Origin: an uncultured Verrucomicrobiae bacterium
GTDB lineage: Bacteria; Verrucomicrobiota; Verrucomicrobiia; Chthoniobacterales; JAFAMB01
DNA length: 64,000 nt
Reading direction: 5' to 3'
Assembly: GCA_963813025.1 (NCBI GenBank)
Contig: CAWEXO010000005.1
Span: 32,001-96,000 of the forward strand
Below, one piece after another: positions 31,276-64,000 of this stretch; positions within the stretch are counted from its first letter, which is position 1, and every line of letters begins with the position of its first letter. The position numbers and the translations under genes were made by a program. Under the pieces are notes generated by a model. It searched no databases. It was not told the origin of the DNA and saw only the letters and a list, made by a program, of their open reading frames with translations.

Positions 31276-32118
31276 ATGGCCAGCCGGATCATTGACTTGG
31301 ACGGAGCTTGGAGCCCCGATGCCATTCGCGGTGCGGCCTATTACAACTACCTTGCCTGGGGTCCGCAACTCCGCTACTGCGCGCCACCTCGAGTTATGGA
31401 AAGGTTTTTTCGAGAAATACGCGCGTATCCGGCGGCCTTTACCCTCGTTGGCTCGGGCGATTTTCATCACCTGAGCGCTCTGTGGCAGCGATCCCTGAGT
31501 GAGCCCTATGTCTTGATCTCCTTCGATAACCACCCAGACTGGGACACCCGTCCACCCTCTTGGTGTTGCGGCACCTGGATCTCGCGCGTACTGGAAACCC
31601 GCAACTTGAAGCGAGCCTGTATCTGGGGTTGTGGAAATTTCGAACTGGATGCGCCACATCGCTGGTTCGCAAACTATCGGGGAATGCAGACCAACCGGCT
31701 CCGAGTGTGGCCCTGGAGTGAGCGGTTAAGTCGATCGGCGCAACAGCGCTGGCCGGGCATTACCCCGAGTGATTGGCGGGAAATTTTTACCGACTTTGCC
31801 GAGACACTTCACAGCGAAGCTGTTTATGTAACGGTCGATCTCGACTGCCTCGATGAAGAAAGCGCGGTCACCGATTGGGAGCAGGGAATGTTTCTTCCCG
31901 GTGACGTCGCTTGGGCTATCGAGAAGGTTCGACAGCGTGCCCGGATCGTCGGTGGAGATCTCTGCGGAGCGCATTCTACGGCATACTATCGACGCTGGAC
32001 CCAACGCACATGCGCGCTCTTCGACCATCCGAAAAAGCCGGCACCAAAGGAGGCGCGCGCTCAAACCCGGAACCAATCCTCGTTGAGCTGCATCTGGCCG
32101 GCTTTGGCGGGCGAATAG
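31276..32118 (+). CDS. Arginase/ureohydrolase-like protein
   Basis: GSGDFHHLS, FDNHPD, YVTVDLDCL, DWEQG, GGDLCG motifs. Confidence 0.75.
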   Translation: MASRIIDLDGAWSPDAIRGAAYYNYLAWGPQLRYCAPPRVMERFFREIRAYPAAFTLVGSGDFHHLSALWQRSLSEPYVLISFDNHPDWDTRPPSWCCGTWISRVLETRNLKRACIWGCGNFELDAPHRWFANYRGMQTNRLRVWPWSERLSRSAQQRWPGITPSDWREIFTDFAETLHSEAVYVTVDLDCLDEESAVTDWEQGMFLPGDVAWAIEKVRQRARIVGGDLCGAHSTAYYRRWTQRTCALFDHPKKPAPKEARAQTRNQSSLSCIWPALAGE

Positions 32119-50339: not shown

Positions 50340-52505
50340 TCACCGGCCCGCGGTCACCCCCGGCGCCTCCCCGGGTAATTTCGCTCCGAGCTGATGGGCA
50401 AAGAAGGAGAACACGTCTGTCAGATCAGACACCTGCTGATCGAGAGAGCTGCCAAATCCATGCCCAAAGGAGTTAATGCGCAGCAGAATAGGATTGCCCG
50501 GTGCGGCCGCCGCTTGCAATCGCGCGACGAATTTCAGCGAATTGGAAGGAGCTACCCGCCCATCATTAAGCCCGGCAGTTATCAGGATAGCTGGATACTT
50601 TGTGCCATCGACCACATGATGGTAAGGCGAGTAGGCATACAAGGCTTTAAATTGCGCCAAGTCTTTCACTGAGCCGAACTCAGTCACATTGAACATGCCG
50701 TTCGGCTCGAGTTCTGATCGCAGCGAATCGTAGATACCTGCCTCGGAAACAACCGCTTTCATCAGGTCCGGATGCTGCGTAATCATGGCTCCCATGAGCA
50801 GGCCTCCGTTGCTACCTCCTAACATGCCGAGTCGCGACACCGAGGTGTACTTGTGCTCCAGCAAATAATGAGCACACGCAGCAAAGTCGTCGAAAACGTT
50901 CTGTTTGCGCGTTAGATTGCCCGCTTTGTGCCAGGCTTCTCCGAATTCGTTGCCCCCACGCAGGTTCGTATCGACATAAATGCCGCCTCGATCGTACCAG
51001 GCTCGAAAGCTCAACCGCACTCGCGGTTCTTCGCTCAATCCATAGCCACCGTAGCCATAAAGAATGGTGGGGTTTTGCCCATCCAGTTTCATCCCTCTTT
51101 TGTGGACAATGTTCAGCGGCACTTTTGTTCCGTCCTTGGAGATCGCAAAATCACGGGTCACTTCCAGATCATCGAAGTTAACGGCGGCCTTGGTGTTGAG
51201 CGCGGTGGCCAGCAATTTATTACCCGCCGAGTCATACCGGAACCATTCCGGAAGGGACGTGTAACTGCCGATGCGCGCTAGAGCCATGTCCTCTGCCGCC
51301 GCGACTTCCGCGACATTGGACACCGGCGGAACCGGTGCAACGCGTCTGTTTTTTCCATCGAGATCGTAGACGTGCAAACTGGACGGACCGCCCTCCAAGG
51401 TCTTAAGCAGGAGTGAGCTATCCGTAACCGCGACCTCCTGCAAAACGCCCTCCCCTTGCGGAACGATTGTTTTTGGACCCGCGTCGGACTTCAAATCGAA
51501 TTGAACCAACTGGCCTCTGGGCGCGCCAGCCTGTGAGATCGCAAAGAAAGACAGGTCCGGTCCAATCTTTCCTCTTTTTATGCGGTCGGCGAAGTGAGTG
51601 AACTGTCGCCATTTCTGGTCCGGGCCAAGGACGAAATGCTCGAAATCCCCGCCGTCCCCGTTGGCTACAGTAGCGACGACGAGATCGACGGTGCGGCTCG
51701 ATTGCAGTTCGACCTCGGCGATCTTGGGAAACTGCGAGCCAATCGCGTAAACATCCGCGCTCTCTGGAGTTCCCATTTTGTGGAAGTAGACCTGCTGGTA
51801 GAAATGGAGATCGGCGACTGGCCGCTCACCTTCGCGCGGATACCGCGTATAGAAAATTCCTGCGCCATCCCGGGTCCAGGCAGCACTTCCGCCACCGGTC
51901 GGATACTGGACACGGGTGAGGTGATCGGGAAGCTGTTGACCCGTTGCCCCGTCAAAAAAGTACAGATCGCCATCCTCAGTCCCGCTTTTCGAGAGCGACA
52001 CGGCCACTTTTGAGCCGTCGTGAGACGAGATGAACCAGTCGATCGCGGTAACGCCTTTCGGGTCCAGGGTATTCGGATCGCATACGCTTCTGGCGGACTT
52101 CACTGGCTGATCGGGCGAATCGAGGACGACCAGCACCTCTTGCTGTTTGGACGGATCAAACTCCAAAGCGAAGATTTTCCCGCCAGCCAATTGAAAACCG
52201 CCCACGGACGGCGGAGTTGAGGTGATCAAGGTCTTGATCTGGGAAGCAATTTCGTTCCGCCCCGGCATTGCATCGAGAAACTCCCGGGCCCGGGCATTCT
52301 CTTTCTCCGCCCAGGCTTTGACTTCGGGATTCGAGGGTTGCTCCATCCATTGATAGTCGTCGCGAACTGCGATTCCATGATAGGTATCGGTGACCGGTTT
52401 CTTTGCAGTCGGGGGAACCGGCGCCAAAGGTGGTGCGGCGTTCGAGAGCGTCTGGATCAAGACCAAAAAGGAGGCGGAGTAAAGAAGTGGGTGCTTGGAA
52501 CGCAT
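50340..52505 (-). CDS. Secreted prolyl oligopeptidase (S9A)
   Basis: Signal peptide, DDYQWME, SKDGTKVP, YGYGGY, NLRGG, GGSNGG, DGRV, GHG motifs. Confidence 0.95.
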   Translation of the reverse strand: MRSKHPLLYSASFLVLIQTLSNAAPPLAPVPPTAKKPVTDTYHGIAVRDDYQWMEQPSNPEVKAWAEKENARAREFLDAMPGRNEIASQIKTLITSTPPSVGGFQLAGGKIFALEFDPSKQQEVLVVLDSPDQPVKSARSVCDPNTLDPKGVTAIDWFISSHDGSKVAVSLSKSGTEDGDLYFFDGATGQQLPDHLTRVQYPTGGGSAAWTRDGAGIFYTRYPREGERPVADLHFYQQVYFHKMGTPESADVYAIGSQFPKIAEVELQSSRTVDLVVATVANGDGGDFEHFVLGPDQKWRQFTHFADRIKRGKIGPDLSFFAISQAGAPRGQLVQFDLKSDAGPKTIVPQGEGVLQEVAVTDSSLLLKTLEGGPSSLHVYDLDGKNRRVAPVPPVSNVAEVAAAEDMALARIGSYTSLPEWFRYDSAGNKLLATALNTKAAVNFDDLEVTRDFAISKDGTKVPLNIVHKRGMKLDGQNPTILYGYGGYGLSEEPRVRLSFRAWYDRGGIYVDTNLRGGNEFGEAWHKAGNLTRKQNVFDDFAACAHYLLEHKYTSVSRLGMLGGSNGGLLMGAMITQHPDLMKAVVSEAGIYDSLRSELEPNGMFNVTEFGSVKDLAQFKALYAYSPYHHVVDGTKYPAILITAGLNDGRVAPSNSLKFVARLQAAAAPGNPILLRINSFGHGFGSSLDQQVSDLTDVFSFFAHQLGAKLPGEAPGVTAGR

Positions 52506-52852
52506 GGGCGAGCAAAGTGGCACGAGTTGTTCTTTGAGGCAAAAGAAGAGCGCGATTTACGAATGCATTCCCACAAATTCTACCGACCAGATAGCCGACT
52601 TTGCAGATCGTAAGTTTTGCGCTCCTGGAATGAAGAGTTGACAGCGGCAAACACTTTCGATTGAGTCTGAGAAGTCAGTTTAACGGAGGTTCCCCCCATG
52701 GATTTAGCACTCTGCCTGCGCGGCGTCCCATTCGGTCGCCCGCCTTCCTAATCCTGCCCGGATTAGAATATTGTTCGGCGTGTCTCACTGAGGCACGGCT
52801 CTTTACCACTTAACACCCAAACCCTCCCAAAATAACCCCACCATCCTTTCCA

Positions 52853-55421
52853 ATGAAACCAGGCAATTCCTTTCGCTCGATTTTTCTCGTGCTCTGCACA
52901 TTTGGTGCGAGCGCGTACGGACAATCAGCCGCAACGACGATCGACCAGAGGGTCGATGCGATCCTCTCCCAAATGAACTTGGCCGAAAAACTCAGCTATA
53001 TTGGCGGTACCCCCTTTTTTGACGTTAAACCGATTCCCGTCCCGAATCTCCAGGTTCCGCTGAACCCACAGATTTATCAAACAGACGGTCCGCTGGGCGT
53101 TCGCCGCAACTCCCCGGGAATTCGTTTCCCGGCGGGGTTAACGCTGGCCGCGACCTGGAATCGTAATCTCGCCCGGGAACAAGGAATCTCCATGGGCCGC
53201 GACAGCCGGGCCAGAGGGTATTTTTCCATCCTTGGACCGGGCATGGATTTCTACCGTGTACCGATGGGCGGCCGCAACTTTGAATATATGACTGGCGAAG
53301 ACCCCTACCTCGGGAGCCAACTGGTGCCCCAAGTGGTCAAGGGTATCCAAGCCCAGGGCGTGTGGTCGTGCGCCAAACATTTCGTCTGCAACGACGAGGA
53401 AGAAAACCGGACGAATGTTCAGATCCTGGTCGATGAACGGACCTTGCGAGAGATCTACCTGCCGCCTTTCGAGGCCGCAGTGAAGGACGGCGGTGTTGCT
53501 ACCGTCATGGGAGCATACAACGGGGTAAACGGGTATTTCTGTTCCGAAAGTCCGTTTCTGCTGACCCAAGTCTTGAAAGAGGAATGGGGATTCACCGGTT
53601 TGTTAATGTCGGACTACAACGCGATTCATTACGGCTTAAACGCTGCCTTGGCTGGTTGCGACCTGGATTTACCGACCGGCAGTTTCATGAACAGTCAGAC
53701 CTTACTACCTTATATTCCTACTCCTCTTTCAGTTTCAATTATCGATGACAAGGTTCGGCGCATTTTGCGGGAGGTCATATCTTTCGGATTTCTTGACCGC
53801 CAGCAGCTGGACCCGACGATTCCGCTCGACGATCCCTATAGCGAGGACGCGGCGCTCAATGTTGCTCGTGAAGGGATTGTGCTGCTGAAGAATCAAGGAA
53901 ACCTTTTGCCGCTGAAAGAAAATATACCGTCCGTAGCCATCGTCGGATCCCTTGCCTTGAACGCGCCACCGACCGGTTTTGGCAGTTCTTACGTCACGCC
54001 GATCACTTACATCAGCGAGCTGGAAGGCATTCAGAATGAGGTCTCTCCTCAGACTCAGGTAGAGACTATCTCCGCCTGCACACTCAACCCGGCGCAGGCA
54101 GCTTGGCAGTACCTTGATGTTAATAATGAGGTTCAGCAGGGTCTGAAAGCGGAATACTACACCTCGAACGATCTTTCGGGCACGCCTGCGATTACGCGGA
54201 CCGATATTCATCTGAATTTTGACTGGGATATTGATCCGATTCCGGTGTCGATGAACCAGGGGAGTTTTTCTGCGCGCTGGATCGGTCAAGTCAGTGCCGG
54301 TGATCTCTGGCGACCATGTTTTTAAAGTCCGGGGCGACGGAGGACTCCGACTAATCGTGAACGGGCAAACCTTGATAGATACTTTTAATTCGCCTCCGCT
54401 GCCTCCAGTGGGTTACGGACCGACCCTAGCGCTTTCCGGGAAAATCGCCTTGCAGGCCGGCAAGGCTTATACGGTGGAAATCGATTACCGTCGCGTCGGT
54501 GGCTTTTTTGATACTTTCGAACAGGGTGGTTTAACTGGGGTACAAGCCAGTTGGGCTTCACTGGAAGCTCCTCCTAATTTCGCCGGGTACGGTGCTGTTG
54601 TTATCGCGGCTGGGATCAGTAACGAGTACGAAGGCGAAGGACAGGACCGACCGTTCCAGCTGCCGGAATTTCAAGACGAGCTAATCTCGAATCTGGCGCG
54701 GGTTAATCCGCGGGTAATTGTGGTTTTCCACGGGGGCGGCAACTTCGATTCACAGCAGTGGATCGGCAGCGTCGCAGGTTTCCTGGAGATCTTTTACCCC
54801 GGCCAGAACGGCGGGCAGGCACTTGCCGAAATCCTATTCGGAGACGTGAATCCTTCTGGCAAACTGCCGGTGAGCATGGAGAAACGGATCGAAGATAATC
54901 CGGCTTACGCCACTTTCCCGAATCCGGTGAATCAACATCCGGACGCGATTCCGTACTCCGAAGGAATTTTCGTAGGATATCGCGGTTATGAAAAGAATAA
55001 CATCGAGCCGTTGTATCCTTTCGGCTTTGGCTTGTCGTACACGACCTTTGCCTTTTCCGACCTCAAGATTGAACCAGCAGTTTTCAACGGCACAGAACCA
55101 GTGACAGTGTCGTTTACGGTGAAAAACACCGGGCAGCGGCTTGGCGCTGAAGTCGCGCAACTTTATGTCGGTCAAAGCAACCCGAAAATTGTGCGGCCAC
55201 AGAAAGAGTTAAAAGGTTTTCAAAAAGTCTTTTTGCAACCAGGAGAATCGAAAACGGTAACGCTACAGCTCGACCAACGGTCGTTCGCTTATTTCAACAC
55301 CGATGCTCATGTCTGGGATGCGGTAAAAGGCAAATACAACGTGCTGGTTGGGAGTTCGTCAGAGGATATCGCCCTTAATGGACAAGTGACTCTGCCCGCG
55401 GAAATCACTGCGCAGCCCTGA
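52853..55421 (+). CDS. Secreted GH3 beta-glucosidase with PA14 insert and Fn3-like domain; one frameshift at ~54290-54294
   Basis: TDGPLG, GGRNFE, KHF, MSDY, VLLKN, PA14 (FSARW.G...DGGLRL), EGEGQDR, NPSGKLP, YPFGFGLSYT, KELKGF. Spans track ORFs 52853..54325 and 54294..55421. Confidence 0.9.
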
Positions 55422-55485
55422 TACGGGCCAAGAACTTCCACCGTCAGCGTTTCCCACTTACTCGAGACGAAGGCCTGGATTCAAA

Positions 55486-57156: not shown

Positions 57157-57809
57157 CCGAGCGCTTCTTTTTTTCAGCGGGCTTTGGCAAGAACACCGAG
57201 CTTCTGACGCTCACGTTCCGAACTTCGAAAAACCAAGATCCAGATTGAAAGCTCTCCATTGGTCCAGGCGAACAGGTTCAAAGTGACAAGACAGAGAGCC
57301 GAAAAAAACAGGGGCAACTTCTTCAAGTGGGGGAAACAAAACTTCAAAGCAGGATCTCTACCTTTATGACTGCTAGCCAGATGGGTCAAGCCACCGGTGC
57401 CGGCGCGGATAGAAAACTGGTCGTCGCTCAGCTTGCAGCGGCCGGGTAAAAACCGGCGGACGCTCTCATGACATCCGATTAATGGGGGTCTCTGGCAGGA
57501 GATTCCTCTTCTGGGATATTATCGCCGGATATCTGCCTACGCTTACGCTCTATTGCGTATTCGAGGGTTTCCCTGATTAACGTCCGCTGGGGTGATCTCG
57601 GAAACTTCAATCTCCCCCAATTCCTCAATCATGATCTCCAGGCGGTATTAAGCATCCCTAAATACGAGGCTTAGCGGGCCTTCGCCCGGTCGTTTTCCTT
57701 CTTTGATCGGTCAAGATCATAGTTTATCGATCAACCCTGGAACCAGGGAGGAGCGAGGGAGAATGCCCGGAGAACAGCTCTAGGACTTGAAGAACCGCTA
57801 CTGGAGAAG

Positions 57810-57864
57810 TGCCGATGGCGGGACTCGAACCCGCACGGAGCTTTCGCCCCAACGGATTTTAAGT
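57810..57864 (-). tRNA. 3' half of tRNA-Leu(TAA) = attachment-site duplicate, not a functional tRNA
   Basis: Minus strand reads ACTTAAAATCCGT-TGGGGCGAAAGCTCCG-T-GCGGGTTCGAGTCCCGC-CATCGGC-A: anticodon loop, long variable arm, T-arm and acceptor 3' strand. The D-arm and 5' half are absent. Confidence 0.88.
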
Positions 57865-57933
57865 TCGGTAAGGATCGTTGATTCTAAAGGACTTACATTG
57901 ACGAGTGCCTGAAAAGTGCCACCTTTGGCACTC

Positions 57934-59097
57934 ATGGGAAGCAAACCAAGGTGGCCGGCTATTCGGGAACGCGTCAACGCATCTGGAACCATTTCGTTCG
58001 TCGTGGACGGAATAATTGGCGGCGAACGCCTCAGATCCTTTCACAAAACCAAGGGCGAAGCCGAAACCAAGGCGGCGCAAATGCGAGCCAAACGCGCAAA
58101 CGAAGGGGCTACCGCTTTTGGGTTGCCGGCGCCCGATCGGGTTGACGCCGAAACCGCCCTAGGCTTGCTAAAACCGCATGGGGTTCGCCTGGAACAGGCC
58201 GCCCAGTTTTATTTGCGCCACTTGGAAGTGATCCGGCAATCGAAGACGGCCGGCGAAGCGGTGGCTGAGCTGTTGGTGTCCAAAGAACAAGACAGAAAAA
58301 GCGCACGGTACTTGGGCGATATGCGCAACCGACTCGAAACCTTTGCCAACGATAAAACATTTGCCGCCCTACCTATTCATGAGATCACCGCCCGCCAGCT
58401 CGAGGATTGGTTGCGCCGGCTGCGCGTCTCACCAATCACCCGGAACAACTTCCGCCGGCTGATCGGTGTCTTGTTTGGGTTCGCTCTCAAACGCGGGTAC
58501 GTCCTGAAAAATCCCGTCAAGAATGTTGAGATCGCAAATGTCGAGAGCATCAAACCGGCAATCTTGAGCGTCGAAGAAACCCAGGCGTTGCTTAGCTGCG
58601 CCTCTGTCGAGCTTCTGCCAAGCTTGGTTGTGGCAGTTTTCGCGGGGTTACGGCCACAATCGGAAATCTTCCGCCTGGACTGGGCATCGATCCATCTGGA
58701 CGAAAAGGAAATTGATATCGCTCAATCGAAAAACCTGGCATCGCACCGTTACGTAAAAATTTCCGATAATCTGGCCGTCTGGTTGCGCCCTCACGTCAAG
58801 ACGAAAGGCCGCGTTGGCCTTCGCCATGAACCTTACTATCGGCATTTGCAAGCCGCTCGCGCGAAAGCTGCGGAAAGCTTGGAATCACAAGGGATCGATG
58901 CAACGACTCTGCGCGCCTGGGGTTCTGATATCTGCCGGCATACCTATGCGAGTTTTCACTACGGAATGTGGAAAAGTGCCGCCGCAACAGCCGAACAGCT
59001 CGGGCACCGCGGCAACCTGCAAATGCTTCACAGATTTTACCGAGCCCGCGTCAGGGAATCTGCCGCGCGGGGCTTTTGGGCGCTTTTGCCTTCTTGA
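57934..59097 (+). CDS. int: Tyrosine recombinase / integrase
   Basis: FAGLRPQSE (R), QSK (K), DICRHTYAS, LGH and RFY (Y); SAM-like core-binding region. Adjacent to the att fragment. Confidence 0.92.
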   Translation: MGSKPRWPAIRERVNASGTISFVVDGIIGGERLRSFHKTKGEAETKAAQMRAKRANEGATAFGLPAPDRVDAETALGLLKPHGVRLEQAAQFYLRHLEVIRQSKTAGEAVAELLVSKEQDRKSARYLGDMRNRLETFANDKTFAALPIHEITARQLEDWLRRLRVSPITRNNFRRLIGVLFGFALKRGYVLKNPVKNVEIANVESIKPAILSVEETQALLSCASVELLPSLVVAVFAGLRPQSEIFRLDWASIHLDEKEIDIAQSKNLASHRYVKISDNLAVWLRPHVKTKGRVGLRHEPYYRHLQAARAKAAESLESQGIDATTLRAWGSDICRHTYASFHYGMWKSAAATAEQLGHRGNLQMLHRFYRARVRESAARGFWALLPS

Positions 59098-59677
59098 TCG
59101 CCGAGGTTCTGTCCTGCCGATCCTGATACCACTTCGAAAGAATTGCGCGGTTCGTGGCTTCCTTCCCGGCCCGGTGTGACGCAAACCAGAGTTCTTTTTT
59201 CCAGTCAACCTCGAGCTTGTTCAGGATCTTCAGCACACCTTCACCAAGCTCGAACAGTTCGCCGATTTTGTGTAGTTCAAACCCGATTTCTCGTTTGACG
59301 TTCCAGAATCGGTTTGAATCCGTGGCAAGGCTAGCGATGAGCAGCACTTCAATGTTAAACGCGAAATTATCGGCCAGTCTTCTAACGAAAGCTTCGTCAA
59401 CTGCCCGCGTTTTTTCCTTCATCCTTTCGCGAACGTCGGCCGTCAACGGTTCGCCGAATGCGTTCACAAGTTCGTTCCGTTCTTCAGACAGAAAGAAATC
59501 AAAGCCAGTTTCAAACACGACCCTGTTTTCTAACTTGTGACTCATTTTCAATCGCCCGTTTTCGATCATCCTGATTGATATGGGCTTACATCCGACGAGC
59601 CGAGCAAGTTTTGCTTGGGATAAGCCGAGGATCTTCCTGGCACGGCGCAACGGATGTTCGCGGGTTCGCCTAGGCAT
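59051..59677 (-). CDS. XRE-family HTH transcriptional regulator (putative repressor)
   Basis: LRRARKILGLSQAKLARLVG....IRMIENG; divergent from the xis-like gene. Confidence 0.85.
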   Translation of the reverse strand: MPRRTREHPLRRARKILGLSQAKLARLVGCKPISIRMIENGRLKMSHKLENRVVFETGFDFFLSEERNELVNAFGEPLTADVRERMKEKTRAVDEAFVRRLADNFAFNIEVLLIASLATDSNRFWNVKREIGFELHKIGELFELGEGVLKILNKLEVDWKKELWFASHRAGKEATNRAILSKWYQDRQDRTSAIKKAKAPKSPARQIP

Positions 59678-59759
59678 GCGTTACCACTATCTATAAATCG
59701 ATGGGTAACAACCGGTTTCCAGTTAACCGCACGGGTTATCACTGGTAACGTTTCCGGCG
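59678..59759. promoter_or_regulatory. Divergent promoter/operator region
   Basis: 82-bp gap between divergent HTH genes with repeated GTTACC/GGTAAC-like hexamers at 59680, 59704, 59722, 59735 and 59744. Confidence 0.55.
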
Positions 59760-59957
59760 ATGAACCATCAATGGTTGTTCCATCTTCTCAGCGAAGAAGA
59801 ACTAGCAAAAGCGCTAGGCATGAGCGTTTCCGGCGTGCGAAAGCTTCGATACAAAAAACTGCTTCCTTATGTTCGAATCGGCGCACGAACCGTTCGGTTC
59901 GACTTGTCGCGGGTTAAGGAAGCTCTCGAGCGGCTAGAAATCAAAGAGGTTTCCTAA
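59760..59957 (+). CDS. Excisionase/AlpA-like HTH protein
   Basis: 65 aa; LLSEEELAKALGMSVSGVRKLR...LPYVRIGARTVRFD matches the HTH_17 pattern. Confidence 0.85.
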   Translation: MNHQWLFHLLSEEELAKALGMSVSGVRKLRYKKLLPYVRIGARTVRFDLSRVKEALERLEIKEVS

Positions 59958-59960
59958 GCC

Positions 59961-60341
59961 ATGAAAAGGCGAGTCAAGAAAAAGGCGGCCCAGGTAACCA
60001 GCCCGGGCGCGCCCGAAGAAAGCACGAACGGGGCAAGGTATCACAACGCCACCGAAGCTCAATTCGCACTTGCCCGCGCGCAAGTCGACGAGCTGCGCCG
60101 CCGCGGTATTTGGCTGGGCGGCCCCTGGATGAGCATCCTCGACATCACGTCTCGAGCAAACAAGTGCGCGCGCAATACCGCGCTTCTCTACAAGCGGCTA
60201 ACCCGGACAAAGGCCGATGATCCGGCCTACAGTGGCGTCTTGAAAATGGCAGATGGCCAAACTTTTTGGGTCTCGGCCTGGCCACGGGTTGTTAACAGCC
60301 GCCCAGTTGTTGAAATTCGGCTACTACCCAAAACGGAATGA
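59961..60341 (+). CDS. Hypothetical element protein
   Basis: Tightly coupled after xis; C-terminal PAYSG.L....G..FWVSAW beta-rich segment. Confidence 0.6.
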   Translation: MKRRVKKKAAQVTSPGAPEESTNGARYHNATEAQFALARAQVDELRRRGIWLGGPWMSILDITSRANKCARNTALLYKRLTRTKADDPAYSGVLKMADGQTFWVSAWPRVVNSRPVVEIRLLPKTE

Positions 60342-60347
60342 GACGGC

Positions 60348-61349
60348 ATGAACCAGTTTCCCCCGTTTCTAAATGCACAGCTCGCCGCTTGCCCCTCGGC
60401 CGGTTCCGGCGTTCACCGTTGGCTTTATTCCACTGCGCGGAATTTGCACGCTCACCTGTCGCCGGAATCGATTTGCCAACTACTCAAACAAAAAAGCCGC
60501 ACGTGCGGCCGACGAGTTTCGGAAAAAGAGATTCAAGCGGCGGTTGAATCCTCGGCTCGCACCGCCTGGCAACCCAAGAATGTACCGACGGCGGTATGTT
60601 TCGAATCCGTGGACCTGATTTCAGGTTCACGGATTCCAGCACCTGCCTGGCCAGAGCCGAACCTAGACGCTATCCGGGAACACGTCGCCAAGGGTTTCGG
60701 GCTGTACGATCTCTGGGAAGCGAGTCCCGTCCGCTGGGACGACGAGCAAAGCCATGCCGAAGACATCGCCGACGGGACTTTTCCGGGCGATCCGCTTTTG
60801 TGCTGTGGCAAAGCCAAAGACACTTTTGCTACCCGGCGCCGCGAATGCTGGCGCGGGCACCTCGCGCGGCTTCCGCTCATTTGCCCGAACCCGATGCTCG
60901 ATTATAAAGGGCGAACTCAAGACGGCAAACTTAGTGAGCATAGCAAAGCAGCTACTGCCGCGCGGATCTATCTGGTAATTGAATTCGATTTTTCCGAATT
61001 CGCGCGGGACGGCGTAACCGAGTCAATCTGGGCACCGCTGGTGCGCGAATGGCGGGCCGACTCGATCACCGTTGCCGACGCTTGCGCTGCCTTGCACCGC
61101 TATCTAGCAACGCGTTTGCCTTTGGTTTTGGCTACTCATTCCGGCAACAAAAGTTTACACGGCTGGTATCAGGCGTTCAATCGAACCGAAAGCGCGCTGC
61201 GGGCTTTTATGGAAGGCGCGGTTTTTCTCGGCGGCGATCGGGCAAACTGGCTGCGCTCACAATTTTGTCGAGTTCCAGATGGCTTACGGGACGATGGCCG
61301 CCGGCAAACCTGTTTTTACTTCGATCCGGAAAAGGCGGTGCGCGTATGA
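60348..61349 (+). CDS. Putative AEP-type primase (Prim-Pol/RepB-like)
   Basis: YLVIEFD (motif I-like), HSGNKSLHGW (motif II-like), D...SQFCRVP. Coupled by ATGA to the helicase gene. Confidence 0.72.
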   Translation: MNQFPPFLNAQLAACPSAGSGVHRWLYSTARNLHAHLSPESICQLLKQKSRTCGRRVSEKEIQAAVESSARTAWQPKNVPTAVCFESVDLISGSRIPAPAWPEPNLDAIREHVAKGFGLYDLWEASPVRWDDEQSHAEDIADGTFPGDPLLCCGKAKDTFATRRRECWRGHLARLPLICPNPMLDYKGRTQDGKLSEHSKAATAARIYLVIEFDFSEFARDGVTESIWAPLVREWRADSITVADACAALHRYLATRLPLVLATHSGNKSLHGWYQAFNRTESALRAFMEGAVFLGGDRANWLRSQFCRVPDGLRDDGRRQTCFYFDPEKAVRV

Positions 61350-62407
61350 GGCCAAACCCGGCATACGTTCGCCCGGCCGAGGACGAAGAAACAGCGGGCA
61401 ACAACGGTGAGACGCCAAAGGTGTTTGTCGAGTTGGCTACCCCTTCTGATATTTTGGCCTATACCCCGCCGGCTGAAAACGTCTTAGTCGGCGATTGTCA
61501 CATTGTTCGGGGCAGTGTTTTTGCGATTGCTGGGCCGCCTGGTGTTGGCAAGAGCCGGGGCGCAACCGCGCTCGCCGAAGCCGGTGCCACCAAATACAGC
61601 TGGTTCGGGATGCCGGTTTTGCGGACGTTTAAAACCCTGATCGTTCAAGCCGAGAATAGTTTGCTGCGGTTGCGACAGGAATTGACTGAGATTGATGAAC
61701 CACGCCTCGCGGACAGCTTGCGGATTACCCCGCCGCCGCCTTTCGGGCTTTGCTTCTGGCGGCACGAATTCCGCGATCAGCTCAAACGCCAAGCCGACGA
61801 GTTTGGCCCCGATGCGGTTATCCTTGATCCATGGAACCAGATCGCCCGAGACGATCGGGCCAAAGATTACTTAGAGTCCTTCGAGCTTTGCCGCGCGGTG
61901 TTCCCTTCCGGCGATCAAGGGGTAGCGCTAGGCATTATCGCGCACACGAGAAAACCGCTGCCCGGCGAGCGAGCCAATGGCCGCGCACTGCTGCATTTGG
62001 TAACCGGCAGCTATGTCCTGGGCAGCGTCCCGCGCTGCATCTTTGTCATGCAGCACGCCACCGACGACACCACTGAGGATCGCGTCGTTTTTACGTGCTG
62101 CAAAAACAACGATGGCGAGCTGGGGCCACGCTCCGCCTGGGTTCGTCAAAACGGCCTTTTTGAGCCCGTCCAGAACTTCGACTGGAACGGCTGGGAAAAG
62201 GGCGAAAAAGCGGGACTTTTTACGCTTTATGACGTGCCCACTTTGTTCGTGCAAAGCGAAGAAGCCGTGGCACGCACTATTTTGGCCCAGAGAATCACCG
62301 AAAAAGGGGTATCCAAACGCACCGCTTACCGCCGGATCGAAGAAGCTCAAAAATCGGGCTTGATCAAGTTCCATAAAGGAAAGGACGGATATGTACTTTC
62401 CCAGTAG
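61346..62407 (+). CDS. AAA_25/RepA-like replicative helicase with C-terminal HTH
   Basis: Walker A GPPGVGKS, QAEN, Walker B VILDP, IIAHTRK, GS, KNN. Start ATG 61346 overlaps the primase stop. Confidence 0.85.
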   Translation: MRPNPAYVRPAEDEETAGNNGETPKVFVELATPSDILAYTPPAENVLVGDCHIVRGSVFAIAGPPGVGKSRGATALAEAGATKYSWFGMPVLRTFKTLIVQAENSLLRLRQELTEIDEPRLADSLRITPPPPFGLCFWRHEFRDQLKRQADEFGPDAVILDPWNQIARDDRAKDYLESFELCRAVFPSGDQGVALGIIAHTRKPLPGERANGRALLHLVTGSYVLGSVPRCIFVMQHATDDTTEDRVVFTCCKNNDGELGPRSAWVRQNGLFEPVQNFDWNGWEKGEKAGLFTLYDVPTLFVQSEEAVARTILAQRITEKGVSKRTAYRRIEEAQKSGLIKFHKGKDGYVLSQ

Positions 62408-62414
62408 TGCAAGA

Positions 62415-62518
62415 TTTGTGCAAGGCACGTGCCATGGCACAACGCTGGCACAAACTCCGATTTGTGCCAATGCCAAAGCCCCTAAGGGATTGTGCCATGG
62501 CACAAACGCGGCACAAAC
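62415..62518. other. Putative replication origin (GGCACA/TGTGCC iteron cluster)
   Basis: At least eight GGCAC/GTGCC copies in both orientations immediately after the helicase stop, including palindromes GTGCCATGGCAC and TTGTGCCATGGCACAA. Confidence 0.65.
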
Positions 62519-62601
62519 GCCGACTTTTTACGTAATAAGCACCGCGTCGAAACGGCGCGAAAAACAACCCCGATCCGCGGCGGTTTTCTGCGGGAACAAA
62601 A

Positions 62602-62946
62602 ATGACACAACAAACAACGAAAGTTAAATCCCCAACACGTCTTAGCCAGTCTGATTTTGGCAAAAGGCTCTGGCTACTTGCCAGCGGCGCAAACTGGTTC
62701 GGGCGTGTTCACATGACAGAACTCGATCAAGCCCAGCTCTACGCCGAGATCTGTGATTCGCTCAGTTGCCTGGCAAAGGCGATCATCGCCAAAGATACCG
62801 ACTCAGATGAGCTGCTTGGCTTGATCGCTGACGAGATGGCTGAGTATGCACGCCAACAGCAATGCCGGCTCGATCGGTTAGAGCAAGAACAAGATTGGTT
62901 CGTTGATCAGGGGGAAGCCAACACCGAACAGAAGCCCAAACTCTAG
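62602..62946 (+). CDS. Hypothetical element protein
   Basis: 114-aa ORF, helical and acidic, co-oriented with the element; alternative start ATG 62713. Confidence 0.5.
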   Translation: MTQQTTKVKSPTRLSQSDFGKRLWLLASGANWFGRVHMTELDQAQLYAEICDSLSCLAKAIIAKDTDSDELLGLIADEMAEYARQQQCRLDRLEQEQDWFVDQGEANTEQKPKL

Positions 62947-62955
62947 CCGGCATTT

Positions 62956-63396
62956 ATGGACGAATTCTCTGATAACGATATCACCTGGCCGCAATTCCGG
63001 GAACGGTACTGCGCCGGGAATGCCGATCTCACGAACCTGGTTGACACTTTCGAGGCGGCCGGGATCGAACTGCGGCGGTACGCCAATCGGATGGAACTAG
63101 GGCGCCCCCACGGCCTCTTGACGGTAACGAACGGAATCAATGATTACCTGATTGCCGGCGACTTCGTAACCGACGGGCTCAGCCTTTTTGTATCGAACCG
63201 CCCGGGGAAACCTACGTGCCAGTCCATCTGGTGCGTCTCAAACCGGGACAGTCGAACTGGCAAGGGATCGTTGAGAGTATCGCGGCAGATAGCCTGCGCT
63301 AGAAACCAAACCCGCCCCGAGGAAAACGAAAATAAACCCCGGGGCGGACAACCCGTTTCCCCTAAAGCACGCCTGAAATTTAGTTTTTGTCACTAA
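62956..63396 (+). CDS. Hypothetical element protein
   Basis: 146-aa ORF starting 10 nt after the previous stop. Confidence 0.5.
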   Translation: MDEFSDNDITWPQFRERYCAGNADLTNLVDTFEAAGIELRRYANRMELGRPHGLLTVTNGINDYLIAGDFVTDGLSLFVSNRPGKPTCQSIWCVSNRDSRTGKGSLRVSRQIACARNQTRPEENENKPRGGQPVSPKARLKFSFCH

Positions 63397-63434
63397 AAAG
63401 TAAAGGCGTACAATCTGTCAACCTACCTTAACCT

Positions 63435-64000
63435 ATGCCAGTTTCCGCTGAGAATTTTTTTTCCACCACAACCTTGATCGACGGCTTTAAGGAAATCCCG
63501 CCTAGCGAAAGCTTTCTGAACTCAAGCTTTTTCGGCGAAGTTAAATTTTTTGATGGCCGGTTTTGTGCCGTCGATACGAAACGCGCCCGCCGAATTCTGG
63601 CGCCCGTCGCCAAGCGCGGCCAGCTTGGGCGCGCCATTATCCGCCCACCGGTGGCAACGTCATTTTACGACGTTCCGATCATCGCACCAATCCGCGTAAG
63701 TACCGTCGCCGATCTCGATGAACGCGGATTTGGTGAGCACATTTTCCAGACTCGTTCCGCTACTGATCGCCTAGCCGAACAAGCGGTCGACGACTACGCG
63801 GAATTGGAAGCCGCAATCAGTCGCCGGATCGAGCTGATGACGTCGCAGCTTTTGCTTACCGGCACAATCAGTTATGTCCTTGATGATGGCGTAACGGTTG
63901 AAACTTTGGAATATGGGAAACCGACAGTGACACTGACGGTTGTCCCTTGGGATAGCCCCGACGCCGATCCGATCGCGGATCTTGCCCGCGCACACAACCT
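63435..64000 (+). CDS. Major capsid protein, lambda gpE-like (Phage_cap_E); 3'-truncated by window edge
   Basis: Hand translation, open to the window end: MPVSAENFFSTTTLIDGFKEIPPSESFLNSSFF...RRILAPVAKRGQLG...DLDERGFGE...LEAAISRRIELMTSQLLLTGTI...WDSPDADPIADL. Absent from the ORF track because there is no stop in the window. Confidence 0.8.
   Translation, partial: MPVSAENFFSTTTLIDGFKEIPPSESFLNSSFFGEVKFFDGRFCAVDTKRARRILAPVAKRGQLGRAIIRPPVATSFYDVPIIAPIRVSTVADLDERGFGEHIFQTRSATDRLAEQAVDDYAELEAAISRRIELMTSQLLLTGTISYVLDDGVTVETLEYGKPTVTLTVVPWDSPDADPIADLARAHN

Follow-up and report, generated by a model that had tools for sequence, protein, structure and literature searches.

A putative phage satellite with its own capsid and terminase genes and no portal gene at a tRNA-Leu of a Chthoniobacterales genome

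Results and Discussion

The window analysed here is a 64,000-bp stretch (positions 32001–96000 of contig C5) of G000, the genome of an uncultured Verrucomicrobiae bacterium, whose assembly is 80% complete. The right end of the window enters an integrated element, designated E1, which is a real, complete island. E1 carries its own capsid and decoration genes, packaging signal and terminase; genes for a portal, a tail or lysis are missing, and it therefore likely borrows these parts from phages of the group of the myovirus G688. We propose that E1, as a phage satellite, would use the portal of a helper phage to package its own DNA. To this explanation as a whole we assign a probability of roughly 55%, and its parts differ in strength. 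It is very probable that E1 is a satellite and not a wreck. Its own terminase probably works on the helper portal, and the helper would, with slightly less assurance, lie in the G688 group. The weakest step is the formation of small heads by the island's own capsid, for which we see a little under an even chance. The functional steps are deduced from features read directly in the sequence, namely the pair of attachment (att) sites, the empty site, the gene content, the cos spacing, a family of sibling islands and a tail of the terminase large subunit (TerL) common with one phage group.

Borders of the island

E1 measures 9,971 bp from att to att and is bounded by 55-bp exact repeats at tRNA-Leu(TAA). 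Integration at tRNA-Leu had been proposed in a first-pass annotation of the window, and extension of the sequence to the right indeed reached the intact tRNA-Leu(TAA) with the exact 55-bp core. The corresponding empty site is found in the same-genus genome G001, where the right flank of the tRNA (85%) is followed at a distance of only about 1 kb by the host flank from the left side (window 50371–55432, 85%), and no element separates the two. The GC content of E1 (0.557) is genome-like. Thirteen open reading frames (ORFs) occupy the island with a largest gap of 194 bp, so that its full length is accounted for. The last 3.8 kb lie past the window end and contain the decoration gene, a cos-like site and the genes of the terminase small subunit (TerS) and TerL. 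The verrucomicrobial host assumed in the first-pass annotation agrees with the flanking MqnE, whose named relatives, three among the 120 matches listed, are all Chthoniobacterales.

A 14-bp exact repeat occurs at window positions 57777–57790, outside the left att, and with the same offset at C5 99748–99761, inside the right end; it is not present at that place in G001. An earlier, related island may have left it behind, or it may serve the integrase as an arm site.

Search for portal and other late genes

No gene for a portal, protease, head–tail connector or adaptor, neck, tail, lysis protein, holin or HNH protein was detected among the 13 ORFs of E1 by Pfam and PHROG searches. The portal, protease, neck and tail proteins of lambda and G688 gave no significant tblastn match to E1, and neither of its two orphan ORFs (114 and 146 aa) is long enough to encode a portal. 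The first-pass annotation had read the element as a satellite-sized island and had named a downstream set of portal, tail and lysis genes as a sign to the contrary; none appears up to the right att. Its remark that terminase, portal, protease and lysis genes are missing holds for the last three, while for the terminase it is true only inside the window, the TerS and TerL genes lying beyond.

A lambda-type portal was not found in the available 80% of G000 by Pfam, PHROG, tblastn or a profile of the phage-group portals. Among 43 genomes of the host family, a gpA-type TerL is present in five and a lambda-type portal in none. As a control, 308 genomes of other families of the order were searched, and 49 of the 58 TerL-positive ones contain a portal (hand count). 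In a second control, 81 viral TerL loci were examined, and of the 66 with at least 1.5 kb of downstream DNA, 65 have a portal.

Two loci of other phyla were also recorded. An unrelated tRNA-Gly-linked region of a Nitrospiraceae metagenome-assembled genome (MAG; L016, 1619–16689) encodes a helicase, two helical ORFs, TerS, a gpA-type TerL, cargo and an integrase, with no portal match in the locus. A terminase layout without a portal may thus recur in another phylum. A region of a Pseudomonadota MAG (L019, 3188–14525) contains tRNA-Ala and genes for an integrase, a replication initiator, TerS, TerL, a baseplate hub and a tape measure protein, again with no portal match in the locus.

Sibling islands

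E1 is one of eight related islands with TerS and TerL genes and no portal, which were found in three genomes (five loci in G000, two in G001, one in G041); two further contigs, from G025 and G029, are too short for judging. Both att copies were located in six islands. Besides E1, these are siblings of 13.9, 16.3, 17.0, 17.7 and 18.5 kb at tRNA-Ser, -Arg, -Arg, -Tyr and -Met, respectively. The att-bounded islands have in common the integrase gene, a convergent XRE gene and the terminase at the far end. The replication genes of the siblings vary and encode PolA, a primase–helicase or Sak4. A capsid gene is present in E1 alone, the seven siblings being without one. In the closest, unsaturated sibling pair (C13 versus G001), the ratio of nonsynonymous to synonymous substitution rates (dN/dS) is 0.13 for TerL and 0.20 for TerS. 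The island TerLs are, as judged from these ratios, under purifying selection.

P4-like satellites remodel capsids by means of Sid and Psu. In four siblings, a conserved helical-hairpin ORF (234–246 aa) is located just before cos, where E1 has its capsid and decoration genes (L045:7750–8454, L044:6351–7091, L054:13303–14034 and L056:12761–13282). The nearest labelled Atlas cluster of this ORF is Psu (0.89); fold searches gave generic results, with P4 Psu ranked 27th (E 0.85) among generic coiled coils. The ORF is a possible candidate for a Sid/Psu-like head-size factor, its identity not being established. No Sid/Psu family match was obtained among the E1 ORFs. Defence-like cargo, which E1 does not carry, is found in siblings at L044:8469–10016, L043:13026–14065 and L057:14265–15158 and includes a NucC-like nuclease, PDC-S31 and PDC-S05. 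A third tRNA-Arg(tcg) att copy at G000 C8:329830–332317, near which the small shared ORF described below occurs, is probably another island end.

Packaging site and terminase

The cos-like site of E1 is located about 90 bp ahead of terS. Its spacing was found in six of the seven islands aligned, the one in G041 being the exception, and lambda has the identical 21-nt spacing before CGGG. A pattern built from the islands themselves matches G000 five times against 0.31 expected; four matches precede a terS and one lies in a duplicated flank. This fifth match (C6:12144) was rejected as independent support because it is a duplicate of a sibling's flank. The locus (L053) consists of the sibling cos copy with about 3.5 kb of flanking cargo; terS does not follow, and the contig begins at a tRNA-Glu att. 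Such a cos-bearing copy could be packaged in trans.

Both Pfam domains of the E1 TerL score over cut-off. By the motif assignments of the gpA family, the protein retains the Lys of Walker A and the catalytic Glu, together with the coupling motif and the Asp at each of the three nuclease sites.

TerL tail and candidate helper phages

The TerL proteins of the islands end in the motif [FWY]G[AVT]xN/T, for example YGVQNKPMNW. In lambda, the C-terminus of TerL is the portal-binding tether of the motor, as described in a passage of PMC9026076. The motif pattern was written after the tails had been viewed. It occurs in 8 of the 10 TerLs of the island clade and in none of 35 other TerLs, and it was found in three of 81 viral TerLs, one of which belongs to G688. 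G688 is a complete myovirus of 57,794 bp with lambda-type head genes and a GC content of about 57%; no integrase was detected among its 62 ORFs scanned. A portal-based scan of IMG/VR, which is independent of TerL, recovered 66 contigs of the G688 group, all uncultured and seven of them 55–64 kb long. A TerL ORF is present on 55 of these contigs, and the motif occurs in all 55 TerLs, in 27 of them in a stricter form. A DNA pattern for the tail matched no viral contig; it demanded a terminal Trp, which is missing from most phage tails. A 65-aa reverse-strand ORF is likewise shared by 63 of the 66 phage loci, the seven siblings and L014, a short contig with a capsid related to that of E1.

In the TerL trees, which like the capsid tree are quick or FastTree runs without bootstrap, the island clade (SH-aLRT 99) is sister to the G688 group (99), and the branch joining the two has a support of 99. 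The approximately unbiased test rejected a grouping of the island TerLs with the order-level prophage TerLs, a group that was named after the trees had been seen. An 83-bp match of G688 to the host was considered as a host link and rejected, as it lies in a small generic gene. G688 also encodes TGT-like, QueE-like and GTP cyclohydrolase genes (L180:12591–18314). These are likely to be a set for 7-deazaguanine modification of DNA.

Capsid and decoration genes

The E1 capsid falls in a clade of environmental proteins (10 rows, full length, 40–63% identity, support 100). The sole informative context within this clade is L014, which encodes P0007; there the capsid gene is followed by the decoration gene, with no portal or protease upstream. 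The decoration proteins of E1 and L014 are 46% identical. The order capsid–decoration of E1 and L014 is the reverse of that in lambda, where portal and protease are followed by decoration and then capsid. G688 has the lambda order, its decoration gene being placed by position and alignment only. Between E1 and L014, dN/dS is about 0.22 for the capsid and about 0.38 for the decoration protein, near saturation. E1 has no close DNA relative, and its comparisons for capsid, decoration protein and TerL, at 0.22–0.38, are all near saturation. Further loci of the capsid clade were found on two short metagenome contigs; none was found in three scans of IMG/VR, nor, save distant capsids, in 42 other genomes of the family or 400 genomes of the class. 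The AlphaFold2 model of the capsid is of low confidence (pLDDT, the predicted local distance difference test, 54).

Proposed mechanism

We propose the following course of events. The XRE protein would hold E1 silent until a G688-type myovirus infects. The integrase and the excisionase-type protein would then excise the island, and the primase–helicase–origin module would make concatemers. The E1 TerS would bind the island's own cos, where the E1 TerL would cut. The C-terminal tether of TerL, which bears the motif of the helper group, would dock on the helper's portal. The capsid and decoration proteins may assemble on the helper portal with its protease or scaffold into smaller heads, which would fit about 10 kb and not the 55–58-kb genome of the helper. 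Capsids of the lambda family can form smaller shells. Finally, the neck, tail and lysis genes of the helper would complete the particle.

In a bolder form, which we regard as doubtful, E1 would be a portal stealer with its own small head and cos-specific motor that takes only the portal vertex, protease or scaffold, neck, tail and lysis functions from a non-integrating myovirus. Together with its capsid-less siblings, it would represent an old Chthoniobacterales satellite family and a missing step between phage-inducible chromosomal islands with their own TerS only and capsid-forming ones with a whole head; ten residues at the tail of TerL would tie it to its helper.

Described satellites borrow the motor of the helper or bring a whole head. 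An own motor and shell with a borrowed portal would, if true, be a third division of work, and the choice of helper would depend on one short determinant open to testing, the TerL tail. Soil Verrucomicrobia would also come into view as possible hosts of an abundant group of uncultured phages, represented by the 66 IMG/VR contigs. The data further suggest that some activity may lie in 'orphan terminase' loci, which have been classed as debris of prophages but may be live elements.

Evidence against the proposal and alternative explanations

Several observations weigh against this explanation, the first of which concerns the assembly. The recA gene of G000 is split over two frames (C11:679120–679909), a sign of indel errors. 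Because of this, the broken terminase frames of two siblings (C1 and G001-Ser) are possibly assembly indels as well. If real, such breaks would suit a decayed prophage that has lost its portal, tail and lysis genes, and the parts of E1 are indeed homologous to lambdoid head genes. We consider this reading highly improbable: both att copies are intact, the genes are tightly packed without any remnant of a portal or tail, and their order is unlike that of phages. Moreover, eight islands at different sites are all without a portal, and their TerLs form a clade of their own under purifying selection.

Secondly, the Walker B Asp is replaced by Thr in the TerL of E1 and in P0009 and P0010; three siblings have Glu. 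A motor-dead TerL might serve as a tool of interference that occupies the portal or the TerS of the helper, while the helper TerL packages the island via the island's cos. The tail motif is the best-kept stretch of the TerL C-terminus, as would be expected of such a tool. However, the same Thr is found in two portal-linked prophage TerLs (L020 and L023). Thr was therefore rejected as proof of a dead motor and is not read as inactivation. The intact Walker A, catalytic, coupling and nuclease residues, and the purifying selection over the whole TerL in siblings, also speak against interference, which is improbable.

The relation to the helper is also open to objection. The shared 65-aa ORF is not in E1, and the tree of capsids joins the E1 clade to the G688 group with a support of only 80–83. 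No CRISPR array that could link the phage group to the host was found in G000. The proteins of E1 and of the helper group are only about 27–39% identical, and therefore the G688 group may be kin of the ancestor of the helper and not the present helper. It is conceivable that E1 is a satellite of another, unsampled phage, its likeness to the G688 group being ancestry only; the low identity to all sampled phages and the missing host link would fit this. In contrast, the persistence of a short motif at the end of TerLs with only 35–56% identity suggests that selection still maintains the fit to a single kind of portal. We consider an unsampled helper a very improbable explanation.

The fourth objection concerns the head. 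The full layout of capsid, decoration and terminase genes is known from E1 alone, L014 being a 3-kb contig that stops before any terminase and in which the capsid frame is broken. The packaging window of lambda is 78–105% of the genome length, and five or six copies of E1 fit this range of 57.8 kb. The island might thus travel as 5–6-mers in full-size helper heads by means of its own terminase, its capsid and decoration proteins being accessory or interfering. The seven siblings without a capsid are in line with this. EcCICFT073, a satellite of comparable content, sets an example: it travels in full-size lambda heads, its capsid and decoration genes are dispensable for interference, and deletion of c1499 or c1500 did not restore phage growth (described in passages of PMC6092414). 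Against multimers stand the age of the capsid clade, the full length of its members, a dN/dS of about 0.2 and the decoration gene kept adjacent. E1 is also the smallest island, with 0.17 of the length of G688 against 0.24–0.32 for the capsid-less siblings, which are near the one-third ratio given for phage-inducible chromosomal islands (PICIs); the sizes as such fit either head route. We consider transport as multimers unlikely and prefer packaging of E1 through the helper portal into its own heads.

Comparison with known satellites

EcCICFT073, a Gram-negative cos-type PICI, resembles E1 in its size of about 10 kb, its own att site and integrase and its pri-ori module. It also has the capsid (c1499) and decoration (c1500) genes and a cosQ–cosN with phage-like spacing just ahead of a TerS-like gene. 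It differs in that its Rpp hijacks both TerS and TerL of the helper, whereas in E1 a TerS of full length and a TerL are both encoded by the island itself (for EcCICFT073, as described in parts of PMC6092414 and PMC9026076). Gram-negative PICIs are unidirectional according to a passage of PMC6092414, whereas E1 has a divergent switch with the XRE gene on the minus strand opposite the excisionase-type gene, and no AlpA match. A SaPI-style (Staphylococcus aureus pathogenicity island) switch had been noted in the first-pass annotation. The two genes are divergent; the integrase gene of E1 faces the repressor gene, while int and stl of SaPIs run in the same direction (same source).

The capsid-forming PICI (cf-PICI) EcCIEDL933 shares with E1 its own capsid, TerS and TerL, the capsid first and the terminase last, and the lack of tail and lysis genes (sections of bioRxiv 10.1101/2022.09.08.507074 and PMC10085698). 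In these descriptions, cf-PICIs encode portal, protease, head–tail connectors and HNH and steal tails only. E1 is without all four and uses a lambda gpA/gpE system; lacking the portal, protease and connector genes, it must therefore take the portal vertex too. Elongated PICIs and HE-PICIs, to which E1 bears a likeness, are satellites whose late zone varies and is made up of lambdoid head genes captured from relatives of the helper. They are, however, enterobacterial, unidirectional and of AlpA/Bro type, and the main text of PMC10111431 mentions no lineage in which TerL occurs without a portal. Marine VEIMEs (integrative mobile elements encapsidated in virions) are likewise integrative satellites, some in Verrucomicrobia genomes and some with TerS; unlike E1, they have no major capsid gene, and TerL is assigned to the helper (passages of PMC9618062).

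The PICI core of SatelliteFinder includes capsid and TerS, no portal or tail, and terL is named as specific to cf-PICIs (methods-related passages of PMC10085698). E1 contains an integrase with a specific att site, a primase (at feature level only) with a candidate origin, capsid and TerS, and no tail, holin, portal or head–tail genes. As regulators, for which PICIs have an alpA, merR or stl homologue, it has an XRE HTH_3 repressor, which may play an stl-like role, and an HTH_17 protein, with no AlpA or MerR match in the Pfam and PHROG searches. PICIs rely on the TerL of the helper; E1 has an intact gpA gene. With cf-PICIs it shares its own capsid, TerS and TerL but not portal, protease, connector and HNH. 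E1 would function in the manner of a cos-type PICI that has acquired some of the cf-PICI kit, and it falls outside the definitions of both.

The literature searched yielded no satellite that has TerL yet lacks a portal, although the supplements of PMC10085698 and PMC10111431, on cf-PICI variants lacking components and on elongated PICIs, could hold cases. The first-pass annotation had suggested that the element may be an undescribed satellite family, in a phylum from which it knew of no characterised example. This was overstated, as capsid and decoration genes in a PICI are already known from EcCICFT073 and VEIMEs occur in marine Verrucomicrobia (PMC6092414 and PMC9618062, in the passages on these elements). 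The distinctive feature of E1, its TerS, TerL and cos, had been missed.

Integration, control and replication genes

The features of E1 are listed in Table 1. The att fragment, the integrase gene, the convergent XRE gene, the helicase gene, two small ORFs and the capsid gene are located as in the first-pass annotation, and the hypothetical ORF after the excisionase-type gene is also present. The divergent gene had been called xis/AlpA-like; the excisionase type was borne out, whereas Pfam and PHROG family scans gave no AlpA or MerR match among the E1 ORFs. The predicted primase is backed by Atlas features: Pfam and PHROG scans were empty and the nearest clusters are unnamed, RepB_primase being the best among the labelled ones. 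The predicted iterons correspond to six copies of GGCACAA/TTGTGCC in 123 bp against 0.016 expected. This is the sole such cluster in the genome, for a motif picked after viewing. PADLOC detected no defence gene in the orphan ORFs. Five promoter matches in total do not exceed the average of 4.1 obtained from shuffles.

Table 1. Features of E1 and its borders. Positions refer to the window unless contig C5 or the E1 locus (L001) is named.
Feature	Position	Strand	Evidence
Left att core (3′ part of tRNA-Leu, ends in anticodon loop)	57810..57864	unstranded	55 bp exact; 57/58 versus tRNA 9,971 bp away
Tyrosine integrase, 393 aa	57916..59097	+	phrog_1 E 2.7e-27; PF22022 above cut-off
XRE-type repressor, 208 aa, convergent with integrase gene	59051..59677	-	HTH_3 over cut-off; homologues in 5 sibling islands
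Divergent control region, GTTAC/GTAAC inverted repeats (candidate operators)	59678..59759	unstranded	sequence inspection; function inferred
Excisionase-type HTH_17 protein, 65 aa	59760..59957	+	PF12728 E 3e-8; TIGR01764 just below cut-off
126-aa ORF	59961..60341	+	weak ssDNA-binding-protein match, phrog_18154 E 8e-4
Probable RepB-type primase, 333 aa	60348..61349	+	RepB_primase clusters by Atlas features (0.96)
AAA_25 helicase-like protein, 353 aa	61346..62407	+	PF13481 E 3e-11; phrog_6012
Candidate replication origin with GGCACAA repeats in direct and inverted orientation	62408..62530	unstranded	repeat count
Orphan ORF, 114 aa	62602..62946	+	no family match; no homologue in 282 loci
Orphan ORF, 146 aa	62956..63396	+	no family match; no homologue in 282 loci
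Sigma-70-like promoter match ahead of capsid gene	63387..63414	+	10/12 match
Lambda gpE-family major capsid protein, 370 aa	63435..64000 (gene cut by window end); whole C5 95435-96547 / L001 6436-7548	+	PF03864 (Phage_cap_E) E 3e-30; phrog_29 E 2e-42
gpD-like head decoration protein, 123 aa	C5 96555-96926 / L001 7556-7927, beyond window	+	phrog_49 E 2e-4; PF02924 below cut-off
50-aa ORF, possibly not a gene	L001 7932-8084, beyond window	+	ORF only
cos-like site: cosQ-like heptamer + 21 nt + CGGGTGC	C5 97071-97105 / L001 8072-8106, beyond window	+	spacing as in 6 islands and lambda
Terminase small subunit, Nu1-like, 184 aa	C5 97165-97719 / L001 8166-8720, beyond window	+	phrog_57 E 8.5e-14
Terminase large subunit, gpA-type, 655 aa	C5 97661-99628 / L001 8662-10629, beyond window	+	PF05876 E 9e-59; PF20454 E 1e-61
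Intact tRNA-Leu(TAA) with right att copy (C5 99781-99835)	C5 99780-99866, 3.8 kb past window end	-	ARAGORN, BLASTN

Homologues of the E1 primase mark two further island-like regions of G000. The region C4:122007–142970 (L047) looks decayed and is filled with insertion sequences. The region at C15:47843 (L049) has a different TerS (phrog_1206) and no TerL; the primase homologue on C15 shares 54% identity with that of E1, with a dN/dS of about 0.14.

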